In this document: in pieces, positions 1,643-56,462 of the stretch
Position numbering within the stretch: the first letter of the stretch is position 1
Layout of the letters: every line of letters begins with the position of its first letter
IMG/VR virus record: IMGVR_UViG_3300021139_000017
Direction: 5' to 3' (one strand)
DNA length: 56,462 nt
From: a virus
The notes under the pieces: generated by a model
What the model was told of the DNA's origin: nothing
Seen by the model: the letters and a program-made list of their open reading frames with translations, nothing else
Database searches by the model: none
Translations under genes and position numbers: made by a program

Positions 1643-2304
1643 GTTACCACAGGAGACGGACCTTCTCTTTGAGCCTTGGCGATTGGCTGGATGACGAAGT
1701 GCCGATTGAATGGCTGGCAGAAATGTTGGACACCATCCGGCAATGCGCCGATGTGACGTGGATTCTCTGCACCAAGCGGCCGGAGAATTTTAAGGAGCGC
1801 CTGACGCGGGTGATGATGTGGTTTGAGAATACGCCCTGCACCAAACAAGGCACTGCTACATGGAACTGGGTTTTGAACTGGGTCACCGACATCACCGGGG
1901 TTTGCGCTCCAAAAAACATCATCCTGCTCACCAGCGTCGAGAATCAGGAGCAGGCCGACAAGCGCATCCCTGAACTACTCAAGATACCCGCCGTGTGCCG
2001 AGGCTTGAGCCTTGAGCCGCTGCTTGGGCCGGTGGATTTGGTTTCCAAAAAAGGAACAGCGGCTAACCGCTCAAGCTGGATAGCAAAACAATCGAACGAA
2101 CCAAATATCCATTGGCTCATCATCGGCGGCGAGTCAGGCCCAAATGCCCGCGAAATGGGACTTGGTTGGATTCATTCATTGGTCGCACAAGCTGATGCGG
2201 CTGGTGTTCCAGTGTTCGTCAAACAGGACAGCGGCAAAAAGTCTGGATTGCAAGGTTGCATACCTGATGAAATTTGGAACAGAAAGGAGTTTCCAAAACT
2301 ATGA
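1639..2304 (+). CDS. Gp37/Gp68 (DUF5131) family protein, apparently lacking the N-terminal Cys-rich segment
   Basis: ATGA start/stop overlap with the upstream gene. Motifs seen: FSLSLGDWLDDEVP, WILCTKRPENF, LLTSVENQ, RGLSLEPLLGP, WLIIGGESGPNAR, PVFVKQ. The family's usual first ~60 aa (IEWT...GC..CYA) are absent. Confidence 0.65.
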   Translation: MSYHRRRTFSLSLGDWLDDEVPIEWLAEMLDTIRQCADVTWILCTKRPENFKERLTRVMMWFENTPCTKQGTATWNWVLNWVTDITGVCAPKNIILLTSVENQEQADKRIPELLKIPAVCRGLSLEPLLGPVDLVSKKGTAANRSSWIAKQSNEPNIHWLIIGGESGPNAREMGLGWIHSLVAQADAAGVPVFVKQDSGKKSGLQGCIPDEIWNRKEFPKL

Positions 2305-3473
2305 ACCCGCAACCGACACTTTGGGAAGGGGAGAGGAAAACGCTGGCCGACTCGCTGGACATGACAGCGCAGAGTCTCAACGCTTACGGCGCGGATTACG
2401 ACCATTGGGCAATCGCATTCAGCGGCGGCAAAGACTCATCTGCGACCGTCGCCGCCGTGGTCTATCTCATCGAGCAAGGCAAAGTAAAAGCGCCGAAATC
2501 TCTAACGGTCATCATGTCTGATACTCGCATGGAATTGCCGCCGCTGTTCTCAACAGCCATGAAGATCATGGGCGAACTCAAGGCGCGCGGCGTCAAAACT
2601 CAAGTGGTCATGCCGAAAATGGATGACCGCTTTTTCGTCTATATGTTCGGGCGCGGTGTTCCGCCGCCGTCGAACACTTTCCGTTGGTGCACCGCGCAAC
2701 TCAAGATCGAGCCAATGGTGGATGCGTTCAAGGCGCTGCGGGATGAATACGGCCAAAAATTCTTGATGCTTACAGGCGTCCGCATTGGCGAAAGCGCAGC
2801 GCGTGACGCTCGCATCGCTGTTTCCTGTGGCAAGAATAATTCCGAGTGCGGGCAAGGCTGGTTTCAGGAAGCCACACCGGAAGCCGTCGCCGACACGCTC
2901 GCGCCGTTGCTGCATTGGCGTCTTTGCCATGTCTGGGACTGGCTGACCGGGCAGCATGAACTTGAACCACACGGATTTTCAACTTCACTTATTGCCGCTG
3001 TTTATGGGCAGGATGAAAACCTAGAGACACACGCCCGCACCGGCTGCGTTGGATGCAACCTAGCAAGCCGCGACTTCGCGCTTGAATCCATCATCCAGCG
3101 GCCACAGTGGAAGCATTATCACCCGCTGATGGAACTGCGGCTACTGTATGCCGAGCTAAAGCGTCCGCATTGCCGCCTACGCAAGGACGGCAGCGAAACC
3201 CGCCAAGATGGCTCGCTCGTCGCCAATCCGTGCCGCATGGGGCCGCTGACGTTCGACGCTCGCAGGTTCGGTCTGGCTCGCATCAAAGACATTCAGACCC
3301 GCGCTGGTGTTGACCTGATTAACGCCGACGAGGAAGCGCGCATCTTGGAATTGATCGAGTCGCAGACTTGGCCGCGTGGCTGGGATGGCAGCGAACCGAT
3401 GGCGTCGGACATCTTCGACAACGTGAACCCCGACGGCAGCGTCCAACCCATCATGCGCGAGTTGATGACATGA
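2301..3473 (+). CDS. DndC/SspD-like PP-loop ATP pyrophosphatase (PAPS-reductase superfamily)
   Basis: ATGA overlap with the upstream gene and an AAAGGAG Shine-Dalgarno site. SGGKDS P-loop, MSDTRMELPP, FGRGVPPPSNTFRWCTAQLKIEP and GVRIGESAARD are typical of DndC. GCVGC lies near the C-terminus. Confidence 0.75.
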   Translation: MNPQPTLWEGERKTLADSLDMTAQSLNAYGADYDHWAIAFSGGKDSSATVAAVVYLIEQGKVKAPKSLTVIMSDTRMELPPLFSTAMKIMGELKARGVKTQVVMPKMDDRFFVYMFGRGVPPPSNTFRWCTAQLKIEPMVDAFKALRDEYGQKFLMLTGVRIGESAARDARIAVSCGKNNSECGQGWFQEATPEAVADTLAPLLHWRLCHVWDWLTGQHELEPHGFSTSLIAAVYGQDENLETHARTGCVGCNLASRDFALESIIQRPQWKHYHPLMELRLLYAELKRPHCRLRKDGSETRQDGSLVANPCRMGPLTFDARRFGLARIKDIQTRAGVDLINADEEARILELIESQTWPRGWDGSEPMASDIFDNVNPDGSVQPIMRELMT

Positions 3474-4605: not shown

Positions 4606-5457
4606 TTATTGGGCCGATGCTGATTGTGCGGCAGAAGTCATTACTGCCAAAGAATTGGCATTGGCATCATCAATTTCGAAGGCAGGTATCACAGGATTGA
4701 TTCGGGTATGAGCGGCGCCCATTTCTTCAGCGGCAAGCCAAACCATTGAGTTTTCTGGGCCGCTATAGGCAATGTCGAACGTGACGGCCGCAACGGTGGC
4801 AATTGGTGGGTTGGTGAGGTCGGTTTTTGCCCAAGCCCACGGCGTATTTCCATTGCCGAGCGATAGCATTGTGTGGCTTTCATCGGGAGCCAGACGCCGC
4901 GCCTCTGATAATGCCAGCATGTCCGGCGCATTGAATCCGGTAGATCCACCATCCCAAAAGACATTATTTCCGATTTTGTGTGCTGGAAAATAGCTTTGTG
5001 CCGCACTGGATGCCATCATCACATCCACCATCAGCATTCCGCTATCAGGACCAATCACAATCTCGTCGCCGTCGAAACGACTTTCTCCATAACTCTGAAA
5101 ATAGGTTCTTCGGCCAGTTGTCATTTCATCGGCTGTGGCTATGAACTTGGTTTTGCAATCTGCCAGGGTTGCATTTCCAACCACCGACAGCAGCGCGTTA
5201 CGCAGATTGTCCGATGAATACTTTGCGGACGCAAAAATCCGGTTAATTGGAATCCACCATGCGCCTGAAAAAATGGTCGGGGCTGACTTGGTGAAGAATG
5301 ACGAAACATCCTTGATCCCGAGCGCGTAGCATCCCCCGACAATGCTGCCAACAGAAGTCCCGGCAATCAGGTCAAAATCCGGATGTCCTTTGGCGTTTAG
5401 AATCGCGCAATGCATAATCCCGCGAGTTCCACCGCCTTGGAGAGCCAGAATTTTCAT
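4606..5457 (-). CDS. patatin-like phospholipase
   Basis: Oxyanion motif LQGGGTRG, nucleophile elbow GTSVG and the catalytic Asp motif WDGG are all present in the expected order. No signal peptide. The stop is 2 nt from the RlpA-like start. Confidence 0.85.
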   Translation of the reverse strand: MKILALQGGGTRGIMHCAILNAKGHPDFDLIAGTSVGSIVGGCYALGIKDVSSFFTKSAPTIFSGAWWIPINRIFASAKYSSDNLRNALLSVVGNATLADCKTKFIATADEMTTGRRTYFQSYGESRFDGDEIVIGPDSGMLMVDVMMASSAAQSYFPAHKIGNNVFWDGGSTGFNAPDMLALSEARRLAPDESHTMLSLGNGNTPWAWAKTDLTNPPIATVAAVTFDIAYSGPENSMVWLAAEEMGAAHTRINPVIPAFEIDDANANSLAVMTSAAQSASAQ

Positions 5458-22831: not shown

Positions 22832-22980
22832 ACCAGCGTTTTTCAAATTCTGCTAGAATCACCTTGTTTTCATTGGCGAAAATAATTTTATTTTTTTGTT
22901 GTATGGCGCAAGCGGTTGCGTTATATTCTTACCAGTTCAAACGAACTAACCGAAACAGCCCGGCAAAATTGGCTGAAAAA

Positions 22981-23877
22981 ATGAAAGACCGAAATATGTA
23001 TTCCTTCACACACACAATGAACAGCCGCATTAACCGTTTTGGCGCATCCGCGCGTGCGCTTCGTTCCAACTCGCCTTTGACCGATGAACAAATCCGCAAC
23101 GTGGCGCCATCCGTTTTCGCGGACGCGGCGCACAGTTCGCGCTCGGCTCGTTATTCTACCATCCCCACCAGCGAAGTTTTGACCAGCTTGCGCCGTGAAG
23201 GGTTTCAACCCTTTGCCGTGACGCAAGGCGGATCGCGCGATGAAGAAAAGCGCGGTTTTACCAAGCACATGCTCCGCTTGCGCCACGAATCGAACATGGC
23301 CGCGCAAGTGGGCGACTCGTTTCAAGAAATTGTTTTGGTCAATTCGCATGATGGCACGTCGAGTTATCAACTCATGGCCGGCATGTTCCGGCTTGTTTGC
23401 TCAAATGGTATGGTGGCGGGCACGGGCAATGGCTTTGATGAAGTCCGCATCAAACATCAGGGCAATGTTATTCCAGCCGTGATTGATGGCTGCATTGAGA
23501 TTTTAGGACGCTTGCCGGCGGTATCGGGTGAAGTGGAAAATTTCAACCGGCTTCAGCTTACCCAGGGTGAGCAAAACGCTTTTGCGGCTGCCGCGCTGGC
23601 TGTGCGTTACGATGAACAGACCGCGCCATTTGAAGCGGCGAAACTTTTAACCGTGCATCGTCGGGATGATGCCGCGCCCACCCTTTGGAACACCTTAAAC
23701 ACCGTGCAAGAAAATGTGATTCGCGGCGGGGTGGGTTACGTTTTGCGGGATGAACAGGGCCGGCGAAAACAATATCGCCGCACGCGCGAAGTCGCTGGAA
23801 TTGACCAAAACGTGAAACTGAATCGCGGCTTGTGGGTTCTGGCGCAAGAAATGGCCAAACTGAAGGGAGCGAACTAA
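22981..23877 (+). CDS. DUF932 (DUF945-like) family protein
   Basis: NSRINRFG...PLTDEQIRNVAPSVFADAAHSSRSARYSTIPTSEVLTSLRREGFQPFAVTQ...FTKHMLRLRH...LVNSHDGTSSYQLMAGMFRLVCSNGMV is a close match to the family pattern seen on ICEs, prophages and plasmids. The start is uncertain: ATGs lie at 22981, 22996 and 23017, and the track start is TTG. Confidence 0.75.
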   Translation: MKDRNMYSFTHTMNSRINRFGASARALRSNSPLTDEQIRNVAPSVFADAAHSSRSARYSTIPTSEVLTSLRREGFQPFAVTQGGSRDEEKRGFTKHMLRLRHESNMAAQVGDSFQEIVLVNSHDGTSSYQLMAGMFRLVCSNGMVAGTGNGFDEVRIKHQGNVIPAVIDGCIEILGRLPAVSGEVENFNRLQLTQGEQNAFAAAALAVRYDEQTAPFEAAKLLTVHRRDDAAPTLWNTLNTVQENVIRGGVGYVLRDEQGRRKQYRRTREVAGIDQNVKLNRGLWVLAQEMAKLKGAN

Positions 23878-23988
23878 ACCGCGCAGTTATTCGCGGTCTT
23901 GGCTTGTCATGCCAGCGAGCCAAGCACGCGGAAAACACCGCAACCCAAACGGCGGGGAAATTACGCCGAATTTAAACAAACTGAAAAC

Positions 23989-26316
23989 ATGAAAACATTG
24001 ATTGCAATTAACAAAAATTCACGCGCGGCGATTAAATTTGCGGCGCTCGGCGTCAAACGGTCTAACCTGCCGATTTTGGGTAACGTCCATCTTTACGCGA
24101 ACGGATCACTTGAAATGGTTGGGACTGATTTAGACGTTTTTACGGTTTCACGCTGCGCGTGCGCTTCCGAAATCGACGGCAAAGTGACATTTCCGGCCGC
24201 AGCTTTGAAAGATGTCGCGGCGATTAAAGCCGATGGCAATATTTCGCTTTCGGCAGATGCTAAAAGCATCGTCACCATTTCGGCCAATGGTAACGAGCGA
24301 AAAATTTACGGCTTGCCCGCTACAGATTTTCCAGCCCTGCCCGAACTTGGGGAAAAGATTTACACCGCTTCATTTCCTGCCGCGAAATTCATTTCGGCTT
24401 TAAAATCTGTTTCGCTGGCGATGTCCACAGACGCAAGCCGATATGTTCTGAATGGCGTTTGTGTTGAGATTAGCGCGGATAACGTGCGCTTGGTTGCCAC
24501 CGATGGCCGCCGGCTGCAATTTGTGGACATTGCACGGGGGGAATCAGATGCGGAAATGATGGCCGCAATCTCTGCCGCGAAAACTGAATTTTCAATTGCC
24601 CAACTGGCGCGGGATGCGGCGCAAACGGTTTTGGCCGAAACAGAAAAGCAATTTCCAGCCAAGCCAATTGAAATTGAACACCGTCGCGGCCGCAAATCTT
24701 CACGGTTTGAAGATTCAGAGCAAACCAAGCTGGCGCGGGAAAACTATGCGCAAGCTTGCCAAAAGCTATCTGAAGCCAGCCAGGCGCTGTCAGCTATTGA
24801 ACATGGGGAATCGTTTATCATCCCCGCCAAAGCCGTCAGCCTGATTCAAAAATTCCCGCTAGATAAAAAGGCGGATCAGACAATCAAAATTGAACTTTGG
24901 CAGGAACTTAAAGGCGTTGCGGCCGGATCGCGCTTCACGCTGGGGGAATTTTCCATCTATTCGCGGCTGGTCGAGGGGAATTTTCCGAACTGCCGCCAAG
25001 TCATTCCGGGGGATTGCAAGGAGCGGATCACTGTGCTGGCCAAAGAGTTTCAAGCCGTTTTGGAAGCCGCTGAAAAAGGAACATCTGAAAAACATAACGC
25101 TGTCGGCTTGTTTTTTGATAAAAATGGTTTGACCGTCAAAGCCAATGCGCCTGAGATTGGGGAAACGGTTGTCAAAATGCCGGGCAATTTCGCGCTGCAA
25201 AATCCGTTTTGCATCTCGTTTAATCCGCGCTATTTAATTGAAGCTTGCCAATCCTTCGCGGTGAATCATGCGGAAATGGTTTTGGAATTTGTGGATGAAC
25301 TTTCACCCGTCAAAATTCTTTCGACCGATGGCGCGCTTCAAGTTGTCATTATGCCAATGCGGATGGCTGGATCATCGCCGGTTACTGTCACGGATGAAGT
25401 TGCGCCAAGCAATGAAGAAAAGGCAAAGGCTGTTTGCGCCGAAATAAAAGGCGAAACTGCCACAGAACAAAAGCCGGTGATTTTGAATTGCGTGGCGAAC
25501 AACCAGCCAGAGCCAGTCGTTGCCGTGCCGGCCGTGCCCATTGCGGAGCCGGTCGCGGTTGCCGCTGTGGAAACACCTTGCCCGATAGAATACGACGCCA
25601 CAATCAACACCGCTAAGTTTATCGGGCATTGCCAAGCCGGCGAACGCTATAATAATTCCATCATCACAGGCAATTTTAACCGCAAAAAAAAGGCAATTGA
25701 ATTTGCGGCCGATAACGGGGGGAAAATCGCCGGATATTTGCACGGCAAATATGTTCGCGGTTGGGTTGTATCCGTGCCGATTGAAAAGCCGGCTGAATCG
25801 GTCGCGGCGAAATTGGAAAACGTCAAACCCTTATCACCAGAATTGCCAGAGCCGGAGACGCCGTTTGAAGTAACTACCCAGCCCGACGTGCGCGTGACGG
25901 TCGCGGGGGGAATTGTCACCCATTACGAGGTTTTAAGTCGTGCGGGGGGAATTTATTCGCGGGGAATCATCCTGATTGGCACCAAGATTGAAGCGTTGCG
26001 CGCGGTATTTGAGGATTTGACGTTTGAAGTTATCCAGGCGGAACCGATGAAGATTGAAACCACCTTTGCCGAATCGCCAGCCGAGGCGGTGGTTATCAAG
26101 CAAGCCGCGCCTTTGGTCATGGCCATTCGCCGCGACGAACGCGGGCAAATCATTAACGGCAATTTTCCCATGCGTGAAGCATCTGGTCCGGTGAAGTTGC
26201 CGCCAATCCCGCCGCGCAAAGGTGGCGCACTGGCAACCATGCTCGAGGCGGGGGAAAAATTGGCCGCTCTGATGATGACTAAACCTGTGCCGGCATTCAT
26301 CGGCGCGGAAATCTGA
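23989..26316 (+). CDS. DNA polymerase III beta sliding-clamp (DnaN) homologue with an internal insertion and a long C-terminal extension (775 aa)
   Basis: ATG at 23989. Clamp hallmarks appear in order: NLPILGNVHL, RLVATDGRRL, EGNFPNCRQVIP, ISFNPRYLIEACQ and VIMPMRM. An ~85-aa helical insert follows RLVATDGRRLQFVDIA. About 310 further residues follow the clamp end. Confidence 0.75.
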   Translation: MKTLIAINKNSRAAIKFAALGVKRSNLPILGNVHLYANGSLEMVGTDLDVFTVSRCACASEIDGKVTFPAAALKDVAAIKADGNISLSADAKSIVTISANGNERKIYGLPATDFPALPELGEKIYTASFPAAKFISALKSVSLAMSTDASRYVLNGVCVEISADNVRLVATDGRRLQFVDIARGESDAEMMAAISAAKTEFSIAQLARDAAQTVLAETEKQFPAKPIEIEHRRGRKSSRFEDSEQTKLARENYAQACQKLSEASQALSAIEHGESFIIPAKAVSLIQKFPLDKKADQTIKIELWQELKGVAAGSRFTLGEFSIYSRLVEGNFPNCRQVIPGDCKERITVLAKEFQAVLEAAEKGTSEKHNAVGLFFDKNGLTVKANAPEIGETVVKMPGNFALQNPFCISFNPRYLIEACQSFAVNHAEMVLEFVDELSPVKILSTDGALQVVIMPMRMAGSSPVTVTDEVAPSNEEKAKAVCAEIKGETATEQKPVILNCVANNQPEPVVAVPAVPIAEPVAVAAVETPCPIEYDATINTAKFIGHCQAGERYNNSIITGNFNRKKKAIEFAADNGGKIAGYLHGKYVRGWVVSVPIEKPAESVAAKLENVKPLSPELPEPETPFEVTTQPDVRVTVAGGIVTHYEVLSRAGGIYSRGIILIGTKIEALRAVFEDLTFEVIQAEPMKIETTFAESPAEAVVIKQAAPLVMAIRRDERGQIINGNFPMREASGPVKLPPIPPRKGGALATMLEAGEKLAALMMTKPVPAFIGAEI

Positions 26317-26345
26317 AACCGACGAAACTTTAACCACTGCTTTTT

Positions 26346-26795
26346 ATGACTACTGAAATTTTCGGAAAACCGATTTTTACTTATAGCCGCGCCCAGGCGA
26401 TTGAAGATGGTTTTTTGGTGGATATTTCCAAGGCTGTCACGCCCTGCCCGTTCAAATACCCGGTGGCAATGACGCGCACAGCCTATGAATCCACCCTTGG
26501 CGCCGGTGGCTTTTGGGATGAAAAACCGGATGGCACGGCGGATTTGATTCTGCCCGGCGGTCAGGATTGCTCGGGCCGCGCTTGGGACGTTTTCCAAATG
26601 CTGCTGGCTACCATGCGTAACCCGCGACTTGATCCGCTGCAAATGCGGAACAGTGACAACACGCGCGTTTATTTCAGCGTGTTGATTGATACGCACGACA
26701 ACGGGCGCAAAACGCGCGTAGAATTGAAAAGCATATGCGGACCGGGCGACGATGCGGCGCCGGTCATCACCATTCTTTTGCGGGGGGAAGATTAA
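26346..26795 (+). CDS. ICE/plasmid-associated hypothetical protein (recalled as DUF6573-like, unverified)
   Basis: N-terminal YSRAQAIEDGFLVDIS and C-terminal GPGDDAAPVITILLRGED match a pattern I associate with conjugative-element proteins. Confidence 0.5.
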   Translation: MTTEIFGKPIFTYSRAQAIEDGFLVDISKAVTPCPFKYPVAMTRTAYESTLGAGGFWDEKPDGTADLILPGGQDCSGRAWDVFQMLLATMRNPRLDPLQMRNSDNTRVYFSVLIDTHDNGRKTRVELKSICGPGDDAAPVITILLRGED

Positions 26796-27283: not shown

Positions 27284-28207
27284 ATGAAATCCATAACCCT
27301 ATTTTATCGCAATCTAGCCGAGAATGCCGACAAGGTTTATCAAGCCGAGATCGTCCCTAGCGCGGGGGGATTTGAAGTCGTTTGCCGATATGGCAAGCGG
27401 GGGGCAAAGCTGTCCTACGTTACCAAGACACGCCAGCCAGTGCCATTGGATGAAGCGCAAAAGATTTTCACTGGGCTTATCCGTGAGAAAACCGCGAAGG
27501 GTTACACCGATGACGCGGGGGGAATCCCTTTTAACGGGGACACGGTGAAACTTGGGGAAATTTTACCCCATCCCCGCAAAACACTTGTGACGTTAGCCGA
27601 GGCGCGCGAGTGGTCAACGTCTCAATTCCTCATTCAGCGCAAGCTGGACGGCAGCTTGGCTCGTCGGGAAGTCGCGGGGGCTGTCTTGCTTGGGGAACTG
27701 GTCACGGCGCGCTCTGGCGCGTTCCTGACGCCGGCTGATAGGGCTTTAATCGCCAAGCATGGCTCGTTTTTTGCCGCCTTTACCGTCGAATCGGTGCATG
27801 GGGAAAAAATGCTCACCAAATCCACGCGGGAACGCTGGGGGATCCTATGCAGTTTCGCTCCATACTTCCCGGCGGATGTCGTCCTGGTTGAATCCGCAAC
27901 CGTGCCGGACATGCTGACGGGGGAAGAAGGCTACGTCGCGCACAAATGGTCGGATGGCTGGGGGGAAATGTTATGCCACAAAGCCGAGGACATTTTCACC
28001 TGCCGCGTGACCGCTACGGGAGGGACGCAAGCCGCGCAAATCTGCGATGCCGCCACCGGCCAGGCACGCGGGGCTTGCAAGTTCGGCGGTGGAGCCATTG
28101 ATCGCGTGCGGATTGGATCGGTCGTGCGGATCGCTGGCATGGGGCTTACCGACGCGGGGAAAATCAGACAGCCAACCTTGTGCCGGGAATGGCTGGTTAA
28201 ATTCTAA
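27284..28207 (+). CDS. WGR domain fused to a minimal ATP-dependent DNA ligase
   Basis: GGGGGAGG Shine-Dalgarno site before the ATG at 27284. The N-terminus (FYRNLAENADKVYQAEIV...VVCRYGKRGAKL...GLIREKTAKGY) is WGR-like. This is followed by ligase motif I (QRKLDGS), motif IV-like EGYVAHK and an OB-like C-terminus. Confidence 0.7.
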   Translation: MKSITLFYRNLAENADKVYQAEIVPSAGGFEVVCRYGKRGAKLSYVTKTRQPVPLDEAQKIFTGLIREKTAKGYTDDAGGIPFNGDTVKLGEILPHPRKTLVTLAEAREWSTSQFLIQRKLDGSLARREVAGAVLLGELVTARSGAFLTPADRALIAKHGSFFAAFTVESVHGEKMLTKSTRERWGILCSFAPYFPADVVLVESATVPDMLTGEEGYVAHKWSDGWGEMLCHKAEDIFTCRVTATGGTQAAQICDAATGQARGACKFGGGAIDRVRIGSVVRIAGMGLTDAGKIRQPTLCREWLVKF

Positions 28208-30329: not shown

Positions 30330-32996
30330 TTATTGGTTGCAGGAATCAGCGCTGCGGGTGAACGCCTGAGCATGCCGGACAGCCACGTCGAAATAGTTGT
30401 TGAACGTGATGGCGATTTCGTCGCGGTCGGCGCGAGTCCAGTTGTCCACCACCGAAACCACCCCACCGAAGATGCCGATCATCAGGTTTTCAAACACGCC
30501 CGCCAAAAGGATGTCGCCGGGGATCTGTTGCGTGGCAATCGCTTTTTGGTCAAGGATGGTGCCGTCCAGTTCGTCACCTTTCCAGATGGCTTCATCGGAA
30601 TTGCTGACGACTGTTGCGCCAACCAGCGTCTTGGGCAAAACAGCCAGGCGACCTTGGCCAACACTGGTCGTGGCGAAAGCGAGCGGACCAGGCACATTGA
30701 ATTTCCGAATCAGCGTGCGAAGGCTTACGATCTGCGAATAAGACGGCGTGCCGCCGAAAATGATTTGATTGATGCCGGGCTGATTCAAGATGCCAAGCGG
30801 CTGGTCGGCCGCGCCGGAACCGTTGATGCCCATCGCGTCGATGTAACGGGCGCGGACCTGCGCATGATCATTCCAAATCAGCGATTCCACATCGTAAGAC
30901 GGCTGCAACACTGCGAGCCGGCTGTAATACTGGCGGGAACCGACGCGGTGCGGCTCCATCTTGATCTGACCAAGCACCTGGTCATACGCATTAAGCTGCG
31001 CACCTTCCGGCAGCGATTGCGCCACCGTGGACGCTTCCAAGCGCGGGAACACCAGCGGGCCGGTCAAACCGGAAAGAAACGTCGCGCCGAGTTCGGCAAG
31101 CGCGATGCGGTTGCGGAGCAAATCAATCCACGGCATGAACTGAGGCGCAACGAGCGCGCCGCCAGTGGCGAAGTCATTCGCCAAGAAATCACGCTTCATG
31201 CGACCGCCGGACAGGTCTTTGCGCTGCACGCGTGAACGGGCATTGTGCGGCATGATGAATCCGCCCTGCTCGGTAATGCGCTGGCATCCGGGAATTTCGG
31301 CCAACTGGGCGCGAATGCCTTCGTCCGCTTCTTTTTCGGCGCCGTCAAACGGCTTCAAGCCGGTGGAAGCATAGCCGCGCTTTTTGGCCTCCTTGACCAT
31401 CGAGCGAATGGCCCCAAACAAATCGCAGGCGTTCGCCACTTCATCCGGAGCATTGACCGCTTCGATGAGATTCGGCTCGGCCGAGGAATCGCGCTTCAGA
31501 TCATCGACCTTGCTGCGGAAAATCTGGCGCACTTCGGCATCCGGCTTGGAATCGTCCATCGCCTGCGCTTCCAGGGCGGCGATGTTGATTTTGTCACGGA
31601 GATAAAACGGCTGTTTTTTGCCGTCGCGGGTTTCGCGGCCAACACGATTGCCAAATTCCTTGGTAAACTCGGTGGCGAGGGTGGCAATTTCCGTATTGCG
31701 CGCTTTGAAACGGTCGCTGCGCGTTTTGGTTTCGGCCTCGACGGTTTTCCGCTGAATGAAGCCTTTTTCCGCCAAAGCTTTTTGGACGGCAGGCGTTTCC
31801 AGACTGTCAATGACGAGTTCCGGTGTCAGGGTCTTGATTTCTTCGGGCATAAATTTTCGAGTTAAAATGTTTGGTGCGGTTTTAGCCGCTTCTGTATTTT
31901 TATTTGAGTCAACCGAACGGGATTTTTCCGCGCGCGATTTCGCGCTATCGACGGGCTGATAAGATCCCACCCATTTAACTTCGGTCGCCTCGCCGAGCGT
32001 TACCGCTTCATCCTCATATTCAAAAACAACCTCCCAATAGGTTGAATCCATCCAGTTGTAGATGATTGCCATCCATTCGCCCGCATCCTGATCCAAAATA
32101 ATGTCCTGGACAAAGAATGCGCTGAACACGTCGCCATTCTCGCGCTTGGATTTGAAACGCTTGTCAGAATCTGCCGCTACGGAAACCATTTGGCTTAGTT
32201 CGCCAAACGAGACTTCATCCGCGGCATCGCGGGTAAATTTAAAATCGGACTTCTTGGCGGCTTTGCGGGTTTTAATAGCCTCACGTTTCGCGCGAATCTC
32301 GGCCTCGCAGCCGCATTCAAAGTTTTCATCGAGCATGGCGCGGTCAAACATATTGCCGCAACACAAGCAGGCCCATTGGCCTTCAGCGCTACGGCGCACA
32401 CCTGCGCGATTGGAGTCGGCCGGCGTCCGAACGGAACTGATTTCGTCTGCCGCCCAGGCGAGGCGTTTGATCGGGTAGCCGTCCTTTTCGCCTTCGTCGG
32501 CAATAAATGCCGTGTGCCAATAGCCGGTGGAAATGCCGGTGCGCTCACCACGCTTCATCTGTTCGTAGCGGGTATTGGAGAGTTCGGAGAGTCCATCGAA
32601 TTTCAGCACTGCCCGGCTGACGTTATCCTTGCTGCGTTTGGCGCGCGGCACTTTGCCGATTTGCAGGGAATTTTCATGTTCGTCGAGCACCGTGCCTTTT
32701 CCGCCGTCAAGCTCGGAAAAATCCACATCCTCTTTGCGATGGCTTAAAAGCTCCCAATACTTCGTGCCTTTCGTGGCAATGCCCAAATCCTCATCAAATT
32801 GGGTGGCCTTGCGCAAAACCAATTCCTCGCTGGCGAAGCAAACCTGGATGGTCTTCTCATCATCATCCGCACTGTCAGTCTCCACGGTGGAATAGCGGAA
32901 AAGATGTTCAGCCTTTGCGCCGCGCGTGTTTGACTTAGCCGGAAGTTTGACAGCCGGCGTTCCCGTCGGCTTTTTCTCGTTTTCAGTTTTCGCCAT
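30330..32996 (-). CDS. fused HK97-family prohead protease / scaffold-like region / HK97-family major capsid protein (888 aa)
   Basis: The N-terminal third (...LDEHENSLQIGKV...GISTGYWH...ADEISSVRTPADSNRAGV) resembles peptidase S78/U35. A CLCC...CGC knuckle follows. The central region is a charged coiled-coil. The C-terminal ~300 aa (GGALVAPQF...LPEGAQL...GINGSGAADQPLGILN...) matches the Phage_capsid (HK97) family. Confidence 0.8.
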   Translation of the reverse strand: MAKTENEKKPTGTPAVKLPAKSNTRGAKAEHLFRYSTVETDSADDDEKTIQVCFASEELVLRKATQFDEDLGIATKGTKYWELLSHRKEDVDFSELDGGKGTVLDEHENSLQIGKVPRAKRSKDNVSRAVLKFDGLSELSNTRYEQMKRGERTGISTGYWHTAFIADEGEKDGYPIKRLAWAADEISSVRTPADSNRAGVRRSAEGQWACLCCGNMFDRAMLDENFECGCEAEIRAKREAIKTRKAAKKSDFKFTRDAADEVSFGELSQMVSVAADSDKRFKSKRENGDVFSAFFVQDIILDQDAGEWMAIIYNWMDSTYWEVVFEYEDEAVTLGEATEVKWVGSYQPVDSAKSRAEKSRSVDSNKNTEAAKTAPNILTRKFMPEEIKTLTPELVIDSLETPAVQKALAEKGFIQRKTVEAETKTRSDRFKARNTEIATLATEFTKEFGNRVGRETRDGKKQPFYLRDKINIAALEAQAMDDSKPDAEVRQIFRSKVDDLKRDSSAEPNLIEAVNAPDEVANACDLFGAIRSMVKEAKKRGYASTGLKPFDGAEKEADEGIRAQLAEIPGCQRITEQGGFIMPHNARSRVQRKDLSGGRMKRDFLANDFATGGALVAPQFMPWIDLLRNRIALAELGATFLSGLTGPLVFPRLEASTVAQSLPEGAQLNAYDQVLGQIKMEPHRVGSRQYYSRLAVLQPSYDVESLIWNDHAQVRARYIDAMGINGSGAADQPLGILNQPGINQIIFGGTPSYSQIVSLRTLIRKFNVPGPLAFATTSVGQGRLAVLPKTLVGATVVSNSDEAIWKGDELDGTILDQKAIATQQIPGDILLAGVFENLMIGIFGGVVSVVDNWTRADRDEIAITFNNYFDVAVRHAQAFTRSADSCNQ

Positions 32997-43847: not shown

Positions 43848-44261
43848 TTACCCAGCGGTTGTAACGGCTAATTCTTCCGGCTCACCTGTTTCATTCACGT
43901 TGAAAATTCCCAGCATTCCGCGCATTGGAATGAACGGCAGTGGATAGGCATTTTCCAGAACAAAACCAAAAGGCCCCACAAAAAACGGCGATGGATGCTT
44001 GATCACGCAACCAGTAATCCTTGCAACGCCCACAATGCCGCCCTTGGCAAGTTTATTGAGTGCAGGGATGTTGGAAGCCAGTGCCGGGTTAAACAGCCGA
44101 ACAAAGGCAACGGCGTCGGCATATTCCAATTGTGTGCAACCCTTGGCTGCGTGAATCTGGATGTCCCCTCGATGCTTGGTTGGCCATGTCCGATTCTCGA
44201 TCGTCTTATGACCGGCAATGATTAACCATGCCCACGGCTGGCGAATTGATATAGCTTTCAT
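43848..44261 (-). CDS. ASCH domain protein
   Basis: ATG at 44261 forms an ATGA overlap with the methyltransferase stop. MKAISIRQPWAWLIIAGHKTIENRTW...IQIHAAK is the canonical ASCH opening. Confidence 0.7.
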   Translation of the reverse strand: MKAISIRQPWAWLIIAGHKTIENRTWPTKHRGDIQIHAAKGCTQLEYADAVAFVRLFNPALASNIPALNKLAKGGIVGVARITGCVIKHPSPFFVGPFGFVLENAYPLPFIPMRGMLGIFNVNETGEPEELAVTTAG

Positions 44262-46366
44262 GCGTGTAAGGCTTGCAATCGGTTGCGCTCGCCTGGCTGC
44301 CATGCCGATAGGTCAGAAGAGTTGGCCGCGACTAATGCAGCGGCGACAGGTGGTGATACCGAGTTGCCACACATCCTTACTTGCTCGGTTTTGGTTAGTT
44401 CGACGACTTTGATTTCCCCGGTCTTGGGGTGAATCAGCCACGCACGGTCAATGACGTAATCGTCTCCAAACCCCTGGGCGCGGAACAGTTCGCGGGAAGT
44501 AAGCATCCGCATTCCCAGATCCAAAATGACGAAACCGCTAACCGTGGCAAACTCGCCTTCAAACACCACGCCATGTTCGCGCAGAAACTTCGCCACGCGC
44601 CGCGCGCCGGCCAAATGCCACGGGGTAAGCGGGTAGGTGGTTCCGTCGGTCTGGACAAATCCAAAACGCTCTTTGGTGGTCACTGTCCGCAAAGGCTCGT
44701 CAACGGCCTGCCCGTCCTTGTCGTTTCCGTAGTATGCAACCAATGCGCCGGACACCACGCCGAATTTTTCCTTGGTGGTCGCGGTTCTGAATGGCTCATT
44801 GACGGATTGACCAATGTCGGATTCATTTCCGTAGAACCCAACCACAGATGCCGTGACAACCTGCTGTTGTGATCCCTTGGCGCTGATCGTGCTGGCCGGC
44901 GAGTCGGCGGCGTGGCCGGGGTTCGTGTTAAATCCGCCATTATGTTGGGCGAGGTAGGCGGAAATCAAAGATGTCTTACCACCACCAGCGGGCATGATGG
45001 TAGGTGCTGGATCTGAAACCGATTGGCCTACGCTCTGGCCAAACTCACGACAAATGGAGGCAGCCACAATTCCGTGGTGTTTGCCGCCGGCGCTGATGGC
45101 ATGTAACGGATCAGATATGTCGGGCGCATTTCCGTGCGTTTCAAAGTTTCCACGAAGTTTCACCAGATTAGCCGCTGCCAGCGAAAAATGACCACCTTTT
45201 ACAGATGCGCAAATCGTCCGCAGTGGTTCGTTTGCCGGCATCGTGCGCTGATTGGATGAATTTGCCTGTTCTTCAATAAACGGTGCCAGCGAGGCATCAA
45301 CAAAGGCTTTCTCTCCGCGATTGGCCCCTGTGATAGTGGTGGCGGGTTCATCCACAGACTCAACACGGTTGTCACCTCCTTGATGCGTCAGGCTGACAAT
45401 GAATGGACGCGCTGCTTTCAAGACATATCTGTCAACACCCTTTGCAATGCGCCGGAGCGTGGCAGGCGCCAATGGTCGTTTGCATCGGACCTTCTTTGCA
45501 TCCTGCCTGGATAGGAAAATTGAATTGCAAGGAGTAGACCAATCAATGCACTCGGCCACCGTGCGCCACGGCTTGAGCTTGAGTTTCCGCGCTGCTTCTG
45601 GCGCAGCGTGCGTCGGCGCCGGCCAAACGATCGGCAGTCCATCACACCGCCAGATGCCAAATAGTCGTTTGCGAATGGTCGGTGCCCCATAATCGCAGGC
45701 GTGCAATTCTTTGGCCTCGCCATAATATCCAAAGCCTTGGATCAACTGTTCGCGGGTGATGTTATTCGACGGACAGGATTCATCTTTCAAGACTTCAACC
45801 ATTTGGTCTAAATCAGGATGATTAGGCTCGATGCCTGCCCCAAGCGCATCATTAAAAGCCCGCCAGGTGCGGCCGCGATGTTCCGGCACTGGTTTTCCGT
45901 GGTGGCAATCCTTTTTGCATTTCCGTCCACCGGAGCAGCCATTGCTATGCGTCTCAAACAATGGTCCCCAAGTCTGGATTTCCTCGACGTTTTCCATGTA
46001 AATTACCCGCGTTCTGATTGCCGCCCAACGAAAAATAACGAACGCCAGCCCGCGAATTTTTTTGCTCAACGGCTTGCCGCCTTTGGCCTTCGAAAAGTGT
46101 TTGCAGTCCGGAGAAAACCAACCCATACCGACACGTCGGCCTTCGGTCAACAGTCCGGGATTAATTGCAAAGATGTCCTCGCAATGGTGAATGGTCTGCG
46201 GATGATTATTGCGGTGCATTCCGAGCGCCTTGTCATCGTGATTCATCGCGTGGTCAACATGCCGGCCTAACGCCTGCTCGATGCCGGTAAAAGCCCCTCC
46301 TCCGCCGGCAAATCCGTCCACGACCAGTTCACTGTTGATGTCTAAAATTAATTGTTGGCGTATCAT
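44258..46366 (-). CDS. DNA (cytosine-5) methyltransferase, 702 aa, with a repeated TRD-like region
   Basis: Motif I DGFAGGGG, motif IV SPDCKHFS, motif VI MENVEE, motif VIII DYGAPTIRKRLF, motif IX MLTSRELFRAQGFGDDY and motif X CGNSVSPPV. Seven xxP-x-x-T-I/V modules lie between motifs VIII and IX. Confidence 0.85.
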   Translation of the reverse strand: MIRQQLILDINSELVVDGFAGGGGAFTGIEQALGRHVDHAMNHDDKALGMHRNNHPQTIHHCEDIFAINPGLLTEGRRVGMGWFSPDCKHFSKAKGGKPLSKKIRGLAFVIFRWAAIRTRVIYMENVEEIQTWGPLFETHSNGCSGGRKCKKDCHHGKPVPEHRGRTWRAFNDALGAGIEPNHPDLDQMVEVLKDESCPSNNITREQLIQGFGYYGEAKELHACDYGAPTIRKRLFGIWRCDGLPIVWPAPTHAAPEAARKLKLKPWRTVAECIDWSTPCNSIFLSRQDAKKVRCKRPLAPATLRRIAKGVDRYVLKAARPFIVSLTHQGGDNRVESVDEPATTITGANRGEKAFVDASLAPFIEEQANSSNQRTMPANEPLRTICASVKGGHFSLAAANLVKLRGNFETHGNAPDISDPLHAISAGGKHHGIVAASICREFGQSVGQSVSDPAPTIMPAGGGKTSLISAYLAQHNGGFNTNPGHAADSPASTISAKGSQQQVVTASVVGFYGNESDIGQSVNEPFRTATTKEKFGVVSGALVAYYGNDKDGQAVDEPLRTVTTKERFGFVQTDGTTYPLTPWHLAGARRVAKFLREHGVVFEGEFATVSGFVILDLGMRMLTSRELFRAQGFGDDYVIDRAWLIHPKTGEIKVVELTKTEQVRMCGNSVSPPVAAALVAANSSDLSAWQPGERNRLQALHA

Positions 46367-56100: not shown

Positions 56101-56462
56101 ATGATTACAGAACTCACGCCAGCCCAAGTCAAACAACTGCCGATTGTCCGCGATGAATGGTTGAAGATCGGATTATCAACCGAGCCAGTGGATAGGACAA
56201 AGGTGCGCGCAATTCTTGGCAGTCTTTACGCGGTGGCCAAGAAACCCGCGCCGAAGTATGTAATTCACCTTACTAGTCCGTTGCATGTGGCGATTGCCAT
56301 TGCACAGATGCGGCTGGGAGACGCCCAAGTCAGCGCCCAAGTCAGCGCCCAAGTCCGCGACCAAGTCAGCGACCAAGTCCGCGACCAAGTCAGCGACCAA
56401 GTCCGCGACCAAGTCAGCGACCAAGTCCGCGCCCAAGTCCGCAACCAAGTCAGCGACCAAGT
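56101..56462 (+). CDS. 5' portion of the junction-spanning (QVxx)n-repeat gene
   Basis: The ATG at 56101 opens MITELTPAQVKQLPIVRDEWLKIGLSTEPVDRTKVRAILGSLYAVAKKPAPKYVIHLTSPLHVAIAIAQMRLGDAQVSAQVSAQVRDQVSD.... There is no stop before the window end. It continues in phase at nt 2 of the window. Confidence 0.6.
   Translation, partial: MITELTPAQVKQLPIVRDEWLKIGLSTEPVDRTKVRAILGSLYAVAKKPAPKYVIHLTSPLHVAIAIAQMRLGDAQVSAQVSAQVRDQVSDQVRDQVSDQVRDQVSDQVRAQVRNQVSDQ
56323..56462 (+). repeat. 12-bp tandem repeat (G/A)(A/C)CCAAGTC(A/C)GC; the first part of the array continued at 1-157
   Basis: Direct reading of about 11.5 consecutive 12-nt units. The last 54 nt equal window positions 1-54. Confidence 0.95.

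Follow-up and report, generated by a model that had tools for sequence, protein, structure and literature searches.

What does a tailed phage gain from a sliding clamp that carries an arm inserted into its second domain and a modular tail fused to its last strand, and with which partners would such a protein act? The question is raised by a gene on the plus strand of the IMG/VR virus record IMGVR_UViG_3300021139_000017, the whole of which (56,462 nucleotides) was analysed and is referred to here as the window. An earlier note, made from the DNA letters alone, had read the product as a sliding-clamp homologue of 775 amino acids (aa) showing five clamp landmarks in order, and translation, profile searches and the predicted fold all confirmed this. 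The open reading frame (ORF) in the mechanical list extends from 23899 to 26316 (+), and the ATG at 23989 gives the 775-aa protein starting with MKT, a start common to all relatives. The landmarks are located at residues 26-35 (NLPILGNVHL), 167-176 (RLVATDGRRL), 329-340 (EGNFPNCRQVIP), 409-421 (ISFNPRYLIEACQ) and 453-459 (VIMPMRM). The gene and the parts of its clamp body are as follows.

23989 to 26316, + strand, stop codon counted: the whole gene for the 775-aa arm-bearing clamp with its modular C-terminal tail, from the ORF list and translation.
23989 to 24534, + strand: clamp domain I and the first half of domain II (residues 1-182, up to the pocket strand ATDGRRL), matched by Pfam PF00712 and PF02767 and modelled by AlphaFold2 (AF2) with predicted local distance difference test (pLDDT) values mostly of 75-94.
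24535 to 24804, + strand: the arm insertion (residues ~183-272), marked by a gap at 183-266 in the PDB alignment and by the AF2 model, and common to relatives.
24805 to 25365, + strand: the second half of domain II and domain III (residues 273-459), containing EGNFPNCRQVIP and the C-terminal pocket strand VIMPMRM, from Pfam PF02768 and Foldseek.

The product is a genuine beta sliding clamp of three domains, with a hydrophobic peptide-binding pocket of the cellular type. Pfam recognised the three DnaN domains in order (PF00712, PF02767 and PF02768, the last at residues 336-458) with expect (E) values of 1e-12 to 1e-17 and scores of 48.5, 64.3 and 53.9 bits, all over the gathering thresholds. 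The NCBIfam model TIGR00663 scored 173.2 bits, as compared with an equivalog cut-off of 137.65, in two stretches owing to the insert, and the profile of phrog_947 (DNA polymerase processivity factor) matched with an E value of 5.7e-51, also in two stretches. In the alignment with the top PDB match, 6deg (E 1.7e-30), the query jumps from residue 182 to residue 267. Residues 1-459 were modelled confidently by AF2 from 21 homologues, with secondary structure in agreement with the clamp domains, and Foldseek aligned the model with E. coli beta at an E value of 7e-32 and a target-normalised TM score of 0.89-0.90. We found that 13 pocket residues (T171, G173, R175, L176, P333, V338, N412, Y415, V453, M455, P456, M457 and R458) are identical to those of E. 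coli beta in the alignment used for pocket, interface and channel, and that they are kept in at least 15 of the 17 aligned members of the arm-clamp family. Conservation of this pocket makes it plausible that the protein serves as a recruitment platform, as proposed in the earlier note; the decoy and replisome-hijacking roles also raised there would be further candidates.

The window clamp shares with bacterial DnaN (E. coli beta, PDB 2POL/3Q4J) the three-domain fold, the Pfam domains, TIGR00663 and the pocket residues. It differs in being encoded by a phage, within an accessory island, in being ~21% identical in sequence, with a diverged dimer interface and some diverged basic residues in the channel, and in possessing a coiled-coil arm of ~90 aa at the 181-190 loop and a C-terminal tail of 316 aa. 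Phage processivity factors (phrog_947; Rhizobium phage 16-3 p081, RR1-A, Aurantimonas phage AmM-1) are likewise phage beta-type clamps, but those of the phrog_947 type are of normal length and show an identity of 25-36% to the window clamp.

The helical insertion in domain II that the earlier note had described is present, and is placed here at residues ~183-272, but it is not unique to this protein. In the AF2 model it consists of a helix (188-221), a beta-hairpin (225-241) and a second helix (244-271), with pLDDT values of 81-96 over residues 191-270, and stands between the two halves of domain II where E. coli beta has the short loop 181-190. Because the arm takes the place of a loop lying just behind the pocket strand in the sequence, it should exit on the side opposite the pockets, and the strand topology suggests that it projects from the back face of the clamp and leaves the pockets free. 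About 18 phage clamps of 430-477 aa share the insertion. It was found in P0002-P0016 and P0031, which are proteins of 429-477 aa, and in P0055, and its tip carries an FPPxY-like motif that is conserved in the family. The spacing between the TDGxRL and GxFPxY motifs is 133-180 residues in the arm clamps as compared with 62-73 residues where no insert is present; shorter inserts, with a spacing of 90-112 residues, occur in a small number of further clamps. These comparisons show the arm to be a feature shared within a small family of phage clamps, known from uncultivated freshwater-type phages only.

The clamp body is followed by the C-terminal extension (residues 460-775, 316 aa), which is mostly disordered and contains the following elements.

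25366 to 25578, + strand: a linker rich in Pro, Ala, Val and Glu (residues 460-530), 62% of which consists of these four residues and for which pLDDT is <50.
25579 to 25782, + strand: tail module M1 (residues 531-598; ..IITGNFNRKKKAIEFA..GYLHGKYVRGWVV), a small beta-alpha-beta-beta unit with homologous segments in P0052, P0054 and P0055.
25810 to 25872, + strand: the linker motif KLxxVKPxxxELPEPExPFEV (residues 608-628), nearly invariant across nine tail homologues.
25885 to 26046, + strand: tail module M2 (residues 633-686; DVRVTVAGGIVTHYEVLSRAGGIYSRGIILIG...), a small alpha/beta unit found also in P0052, P0054 and P0055.
26101 to 26313, + strand: the terminal module M3 (residues 705-775; IRRDERGQIINGNFPMREASGPVKLPPIPPRKGGALATMLEAGEKLAALMM..VPAFIGAEI), found also in P0051-P0057 and in the 77-aa protein P0059.

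The extension was estimated at ~310 aa in the earlier note, close to its actual length, and was thought to contain two globular-looking regions. The count of regions did not stand, as three conserved units together with linker motifs are present. When the tail proteins are compared, the tail reads as a string composed of one of two alternative M1 units, an optional GWxxPLPxGNF motif, the KLxxVKPxxxELPEPExPFEV motif, an optional M2 and the terminal M3, joined by linkers that are 50-62% Pro, Ala, Val and Glu. M2 is absent from P0051, P0053, P0056 and P0057. M3 is the sole part that none of the tail proteins (P0051-P0057) lacks, and it also stands alone as P0059; its consensus IRRDExGxxINGNFPxREAxGPVxLPPIP... 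is followed by an amphipathic helix and an aromatic C-terminus. AF2 modelling of the whole tail from a 10-sequence alignment gave a mean pLDDT of 57.6, with two small alpha/beta units at 60-78 (about 60-77 for M1 and 65-78 for M2) and a terminal helix; M3 was mostly extended apart from the amphipathic helix at 747-762. Scans of the tail and of its single modules against Pfam and PHROG, including the LPD families, gave nothing credible up to an E value of 10, and Foldseek of the tail model against the PDB gave nothing better than E 0.9. The refutation that the earlier note had named, a fusion already known and common, does not apply. An initial impression that M1 resembles a SPOR or ferredoxin-like fold was unsupported and was dropped. 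With regard to its position on the clamp, strand topology suggests that the tail leaves the body immediately after the pocket strand MPMR.

When 1.84 billion representative proteins were scanned in full with HMMER, 10 matched the tail. Their architectures differ. P0055 is an arm-clamp with a longer tail (963 aa in all), whereas P0052, P0053, P0056 and P0057 carry a tail of the window type after an unrelated N-terminal region starting with MNTIxKSQILEA. This non-clamp head, of ~375 aa, is common to P0052, P0053 and P0056, and P0057 retains only its first ~20 residues; none of the four heads has a Pfam match. P0054 consists of the tail only, P0058-60 are three small stand-alone tail pieces, and P0051 is one tail relative obtained from a word-indexed search. 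The tail loci found comprise one from IMG/VR and four from metagenomes of the Joint Genome Institute (JGI). Pattern scans of 185,579 species genomes (GTDB) with the tail motif returned no relatives, and those with the clamp pattern were likewise empty; INPHARED contained no close phage, and tblastn of the tail against the genes downstream of the short-clamp relatives gave no match.

Two loci show how the tail changes its partner. In L011 (527-4177, corresponding to 22903-26795 of the window), the DUF932 and DUF6573 genes on either side show identities of 87% and 82%, respectively, to their window counterparts, and the slot between them is occupied by P0052, in which the ~375-aa non-clamp head (MNTIKKSQILEADKLATIYAG...) precedes a tail that is 53% identical to that of the window protein. 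The comparison of L011 with the window indicates a swap of heads in a fixed gene slot. The possibility that the head of P0052, P0053 and P0056 is a degenerate clamp was rejected for want of evidence: hhalign gave a probability of 0.2% and aligned the tails alone, and a PDB profile search was empty. In L014 (1-240), the clamp ORF ends with ...VIMPIRMESGKPCVEKPVVSAPV-TAA and the tail gene, encoding P0054, starts 60 nucleotides further on in the same frame; the residues after the clamp TAA resemble the linker of the window protein. L014 represents the clamp-tail fusion in a split form, or in one that was interrupted recently. The occurrence of clamp and tail both fused and split is a classical sign of functional linkage. 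From these arrangements (on a clamp, on a non-clamp head in one and the same slot, standing alone, or as a separate gene), the tail is seen to be a movable cassette.

The arrangement in L014 also bears on the possibility that the window gene is an artefact, in which an ordinary dnaN runs on into the following gene through a frameshift or a lost stop codon. Such a reading would be consistent with the single in-frame TAA that separates the clamp and tail ORFs of L014, and with the observation that the remaining arm-clamps end directly after MPMRLS. Against this, the 775-aa ORF is uninterrupted in the window, and exact copies of its product are encoded on at least 12 contigs that were assembled independently and that come, among the contigs listed, from six samples. 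The frameshift that the earlier note had named as a refutation is excluded by these identical copies, and P0055 provides a second fused case. The artefact reading can therefore be regarded as essentially excluded.

The window is a tailed-phage genome with lambda-like head genes, including a GpA-type large terminase and a lambda-family portal, on the minus strand. The clamp gene lies in an accessory island on the plus strand (~22.9-29.1 kb), between the minus-strand tail and head genes, together with genes for a DUF932 protein, a DUF6573 protein, a Phage_P22_Y8K6/phrog_1273 protein and a WGR protein. The last of these, absent from the earlier note, is the companion of most interest here.

27284 to 28207, + strand: a WGR domain with a diverged, miniature ATP-dependent ligase-like core, from a Pfam WGR match, distant homologues with PF01068 and PF05406, and hhalign.

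The core comprises ~213 aa and contains RKLDGS (its KxDG motif), EGYVAH and MLCHK. Close homologues of the whole protein are ~310 aa long, and many homologues of ~220 aa that lack WGR are common in related phages. PF01068 gave no match to the window protein directly, and phmmer and profile searches against the PDB were empty. The assignment as ligase-like came through distant homologues of ~354 aa, which contain both PF05406 (WGR) and PF01068 (ATP-dependent DNA ligase). The names of these homologues, together with PMC7470946, give no more than a hint of a host in Verrucomicrobiota/Planctomycetota. A pairwise comparison of the non-WGR part with P0113 showed weak similarity (E 0.044), and hhalign of 34 WGR-less sequences against 62 ligase cores from which WGR had been stripped gave a probability of 96.5% and an E value of 8e-10 over 192 columns, with motifs I (KxDG), IIIa, IV and V aligned. 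Comparisons of the core by HMM search and hhalign with the PBCV-1 and T7 ligases were not significant. We regard the product of 27284-28207 as a predicted ATP-dependent ligase-like enzyme, the activity of which is unproven because the lysine of motif IV is missing.

A homologue of this gene was found in 8 of the 9 informative island types. It is present with WGR in the window, L010 and L011, and also in L001, where no other sizeable gene separates it from the clamp upstream, in L002/3, L012/13 and L015, and on the contig of P0057. As a control, we examined the best 80 of 312 phage clamp loci in IMG/VR. A ligase-like gene, WGR, arm or tail was seen in L024 alone, which is the same locus as L010, and no ligase-like gene was found near the ordinary phage clamps of this control (0/79). 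In these data, the miniature ligase-like gene is the sole neighbour retained across the related islands. Partnerships between sliding clamps and ligases include those of PCNA with Lig1 and of beta with LigA. The partnership of T4 ligase with gp45 is also known (PMC6212786), and the window likewise has a sliding clamp gene near a gene of the ATP-dependent ligase type. ATP-dependent ligases of the WGR-NT-OB type form a known, uncharacterised bacterial cluster (PMC7470946), which the window protein resembles in having WGR N-terminal to a small NT-OB core. As compared with the known clamp ligases and the WGR-NT-OB enzymes, the core encoded in the window is very small and diverged, and lacks the motif IV lysine.

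Phage beta clamps are common, and their roles are mostly assumed. The arm, the pocket-adjacent tail, the swapping of heads and the ligase-like partner point to a role of this family outside bulk replication. The explanation that we prefer, although we rate it at somewhat less than an even chance, is that the protein serves as a clamp "toolbelt" for the sealing of nicks and the establishment of the phage rather than as a simple processivity factor. In this scheme, phage DNA would receive the phage clamp from the host clamp loader, at nicks or 3' junctions, a candidate site being the two nicks that annealed cohesive ends leave behind. With its front-face pockets and the tail beside them, the clamp would then concentrate the phage ligase on this DNA, and may also gather other products of the island or host clamp-binding proteins, while the arm would provide a phage-specific contact. 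Nicks would be sealed, and the phage established, quickly. In a phage whose terminase and portal are of the lambda type, the greatest benefit of such a device would be expected where cohesive ends have annealed or where host defences have damaged the DNA.

Several observations weigh against this explanation. The dimer-interface residues I272, L273 and F106 of E. coli are replaced by K363, G364 and R104, and several basic (arginine) residues of the E. coli channel are lost, so that ring formation and loading onto DNA are assumptions of the proposal. The ligase-like protein has EGYVAH at motif IV, without its lysine, and the divergent arm-clamp contig L017 (5 kb) has no ligase within 3 kb. Inspection by eye of the tail, the ligase and the neighbouring proteins revealed no canonical clamp-binding motif of the QL[SD]LF type. 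The tail also occurs on non-clamp heads, so the clamp is not required by the tail, and an accessory island with neighbours of the polyvalent-protein type suits other roles equally.

Among those other roles, the most conventional is that of a plain processivity factor, in which the phage clamp replaces host beta and captures host Pol III, the arm and tail tuning specificity only. The conserved pocket would fit such a role, and many phage DnaN homologues are annotated in this way (phrog_947, Rhizobium phage 16-3 and the 312 IMG/VR loci). It would fit as well with the lack of a recognised phage polymerase: the window ORFs scanned, many of which are without assignment, yielded no recognisable polymerase, helicase, primase or clamp loader, and to this extent the statement of the earlier note that no cognate polymerase or clamp loader is encoded holds. 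The window does encode an ERF recombinase, a PDDEXK exonuclease, RusA, an HNH protein and an AAA_23 ATPase. However, the clamp gene is located outside the recombination and replication region (ERF, exonuclease and RusA at 46-51 kb), in an island between the tail and head operons; a near-identical island has a non-clamp protein with the same tail in the slot; and the conserved neighbour is ligase-like, not a replication gene. We consider plain processivity unlikely for these reasons. Still less probable, in our view, is that the protein is a decoy that soaks up clamp binders (Pol III alpha, delta, Hda, MutS and LigA) or poisons host clamps through mixed dimers, thereby stopping host replication or repair. 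A pocket that is conserved while the dimer interface and the basic residues of the channel have diverged, in a phage for which no cognate polymerase was recognised, would be expected of a decoy. Yet the full three-domain fold and ring-type architecture are strongly conserved in the family, beyond the needs of a peptide sponge, and the conserved ligase neighbour and the non-clamp heads would be left unexplained.

A counter-defence role of the polyvalent type is rather unlikely, though less so than either of these. The clamp would here act as an anchor on DNA while the tail modules bind or inhibit host defence or repair proteins, and the protein might be packaged and injected. The tail, made of small shuffled modules on flexible linkers, is in line with such a role, and so is the position of the island between structural operons. 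Related islands contain domains of polyvalent proteins and leading regions, namely LPD29 with DUF4942 (in a protein of 1142 aa), LPD29, DUF3560, MT-A70, DUF932 and DUF6573, and LPD domains have been described singly beside phage structural genes as facilitators of early invasion (Iyer et al. 2017, PMC5512222). The window protein resembles polyvalent proteins in combining several shuffled modules on one chain and in its genomic associations, with LPD29/DUF4942 neighbours in relatives and tail and head genes on its flanks. It differs from them in that the clamp is its one recognisable domain, the remainder being small units of no known family, whereas polyvalent proteins have at least two described domains. 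In addition, the island is on the strand opposite to the late structural genes, so that co-expression with the virion is not suggested; no MuF or portal-anchoring domain and no processing protease was seen, no tail module matches a known inhibitor, and clamps are not mentioned in the paper on polyvalent proteins (PMC5512222).

We therefore retain the clamp "toolbelt" for nick sealing as the preferred explanation. A broader form of it is unlikely at present. In that form, the clamp would be a DNA-riding anchor for swappable effector or adaptor modules, with clamp and non-clamp heads interchangeable, and would form together with the mini-ligase a new phage "establishment toolbelt" that seals incoming DNA and shields it from host nicking or end-dependent defences. 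Phage beta clamps as such are already known; as far as we have searched the literature, the arm-clamp family, the fusion to a rare shuffled tail and the linkage to a mini-ligase are undescribed. If the preferred explanation is true, it would provide a testable model of the way in which the DNA of cos-type phages is made safe immediately after entry, a natural case of adaptor modules fused to a sliding clamp, and a function for very small, uncharacterised WGR-linked ligase-like enzymes.

The remaining genes of the island are less constant than the ligase-like gene. The two that flank the clamp are as follows.

22903 to 23877, + strand: the DUF932 gene, first of the plus-strand island (Pfam PF06067, 8.8e-47), conserved only in L011.
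26346 to 26795, + strand: the DUF6573 gene, downstream of the clamp (Pfam PF20213, 2.2e-16), conserved only in L011.

The earlier note had regarded DUF932 as a possible partner and had called for a survey of its co-occurrence with long DnaN homologues. Among the 9 island types, DUF932 was found only in the window and L011, which does not support such a partnership. Other islands contain instead AAA+DUF2201, LPD29, DUF4942, DUF3560 or methyltransferases. In L010 (10998-14426), the 1142-aa LPD29+DUF4942 protein is encoded directly after the 963-aa clamp-tail gene and is followed by the WGR ligase-like gene, and in L012, LPD29 follows the tail protein. Residues 2-28 of the DUF6573 protein of the window (26346-26429; ..YSRAQAIEDGFLVD..) match a short segment of the type I restriction HsdR models NF008521 and NF046051, and this N-terminal stretch also matches the 1010-aa PHROG phrog_16694, which could be a shared short motif.

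Several features were noted elsewhere in the window. Counts of predicted promoters and terminators were not above those of shuffled sequence, and Rfam gave nothing. The same 12-nucleotide tandem repeat (CCAAGTCAGCGA) is present at both ends, with 13 copies at 1-157 and 11.5 copies at 56325-56462; since both ends hold this repeat, the window is probably a complete phage genome, circular or permuted, the assembly of which was broken inside the repeat array. At 2274-3473 the window encodes a protein with a PAPS-reductase domain, at 4606-5457 a patatin-like phospholipase, and at 44258-46366 a protein of 701 aa whose C-terminal domain is a C5 cytosine methyltransferase. At 30330-32996, on the minus strand, a major capsid (Phage_capsid) domain occupies residues 611-879 of an 888-aa protein, with an arrangement alike in relatives of 892-917 aa; the ~600 residues before this domain, which have no assignment, may represent a protease or scaffold fusion.

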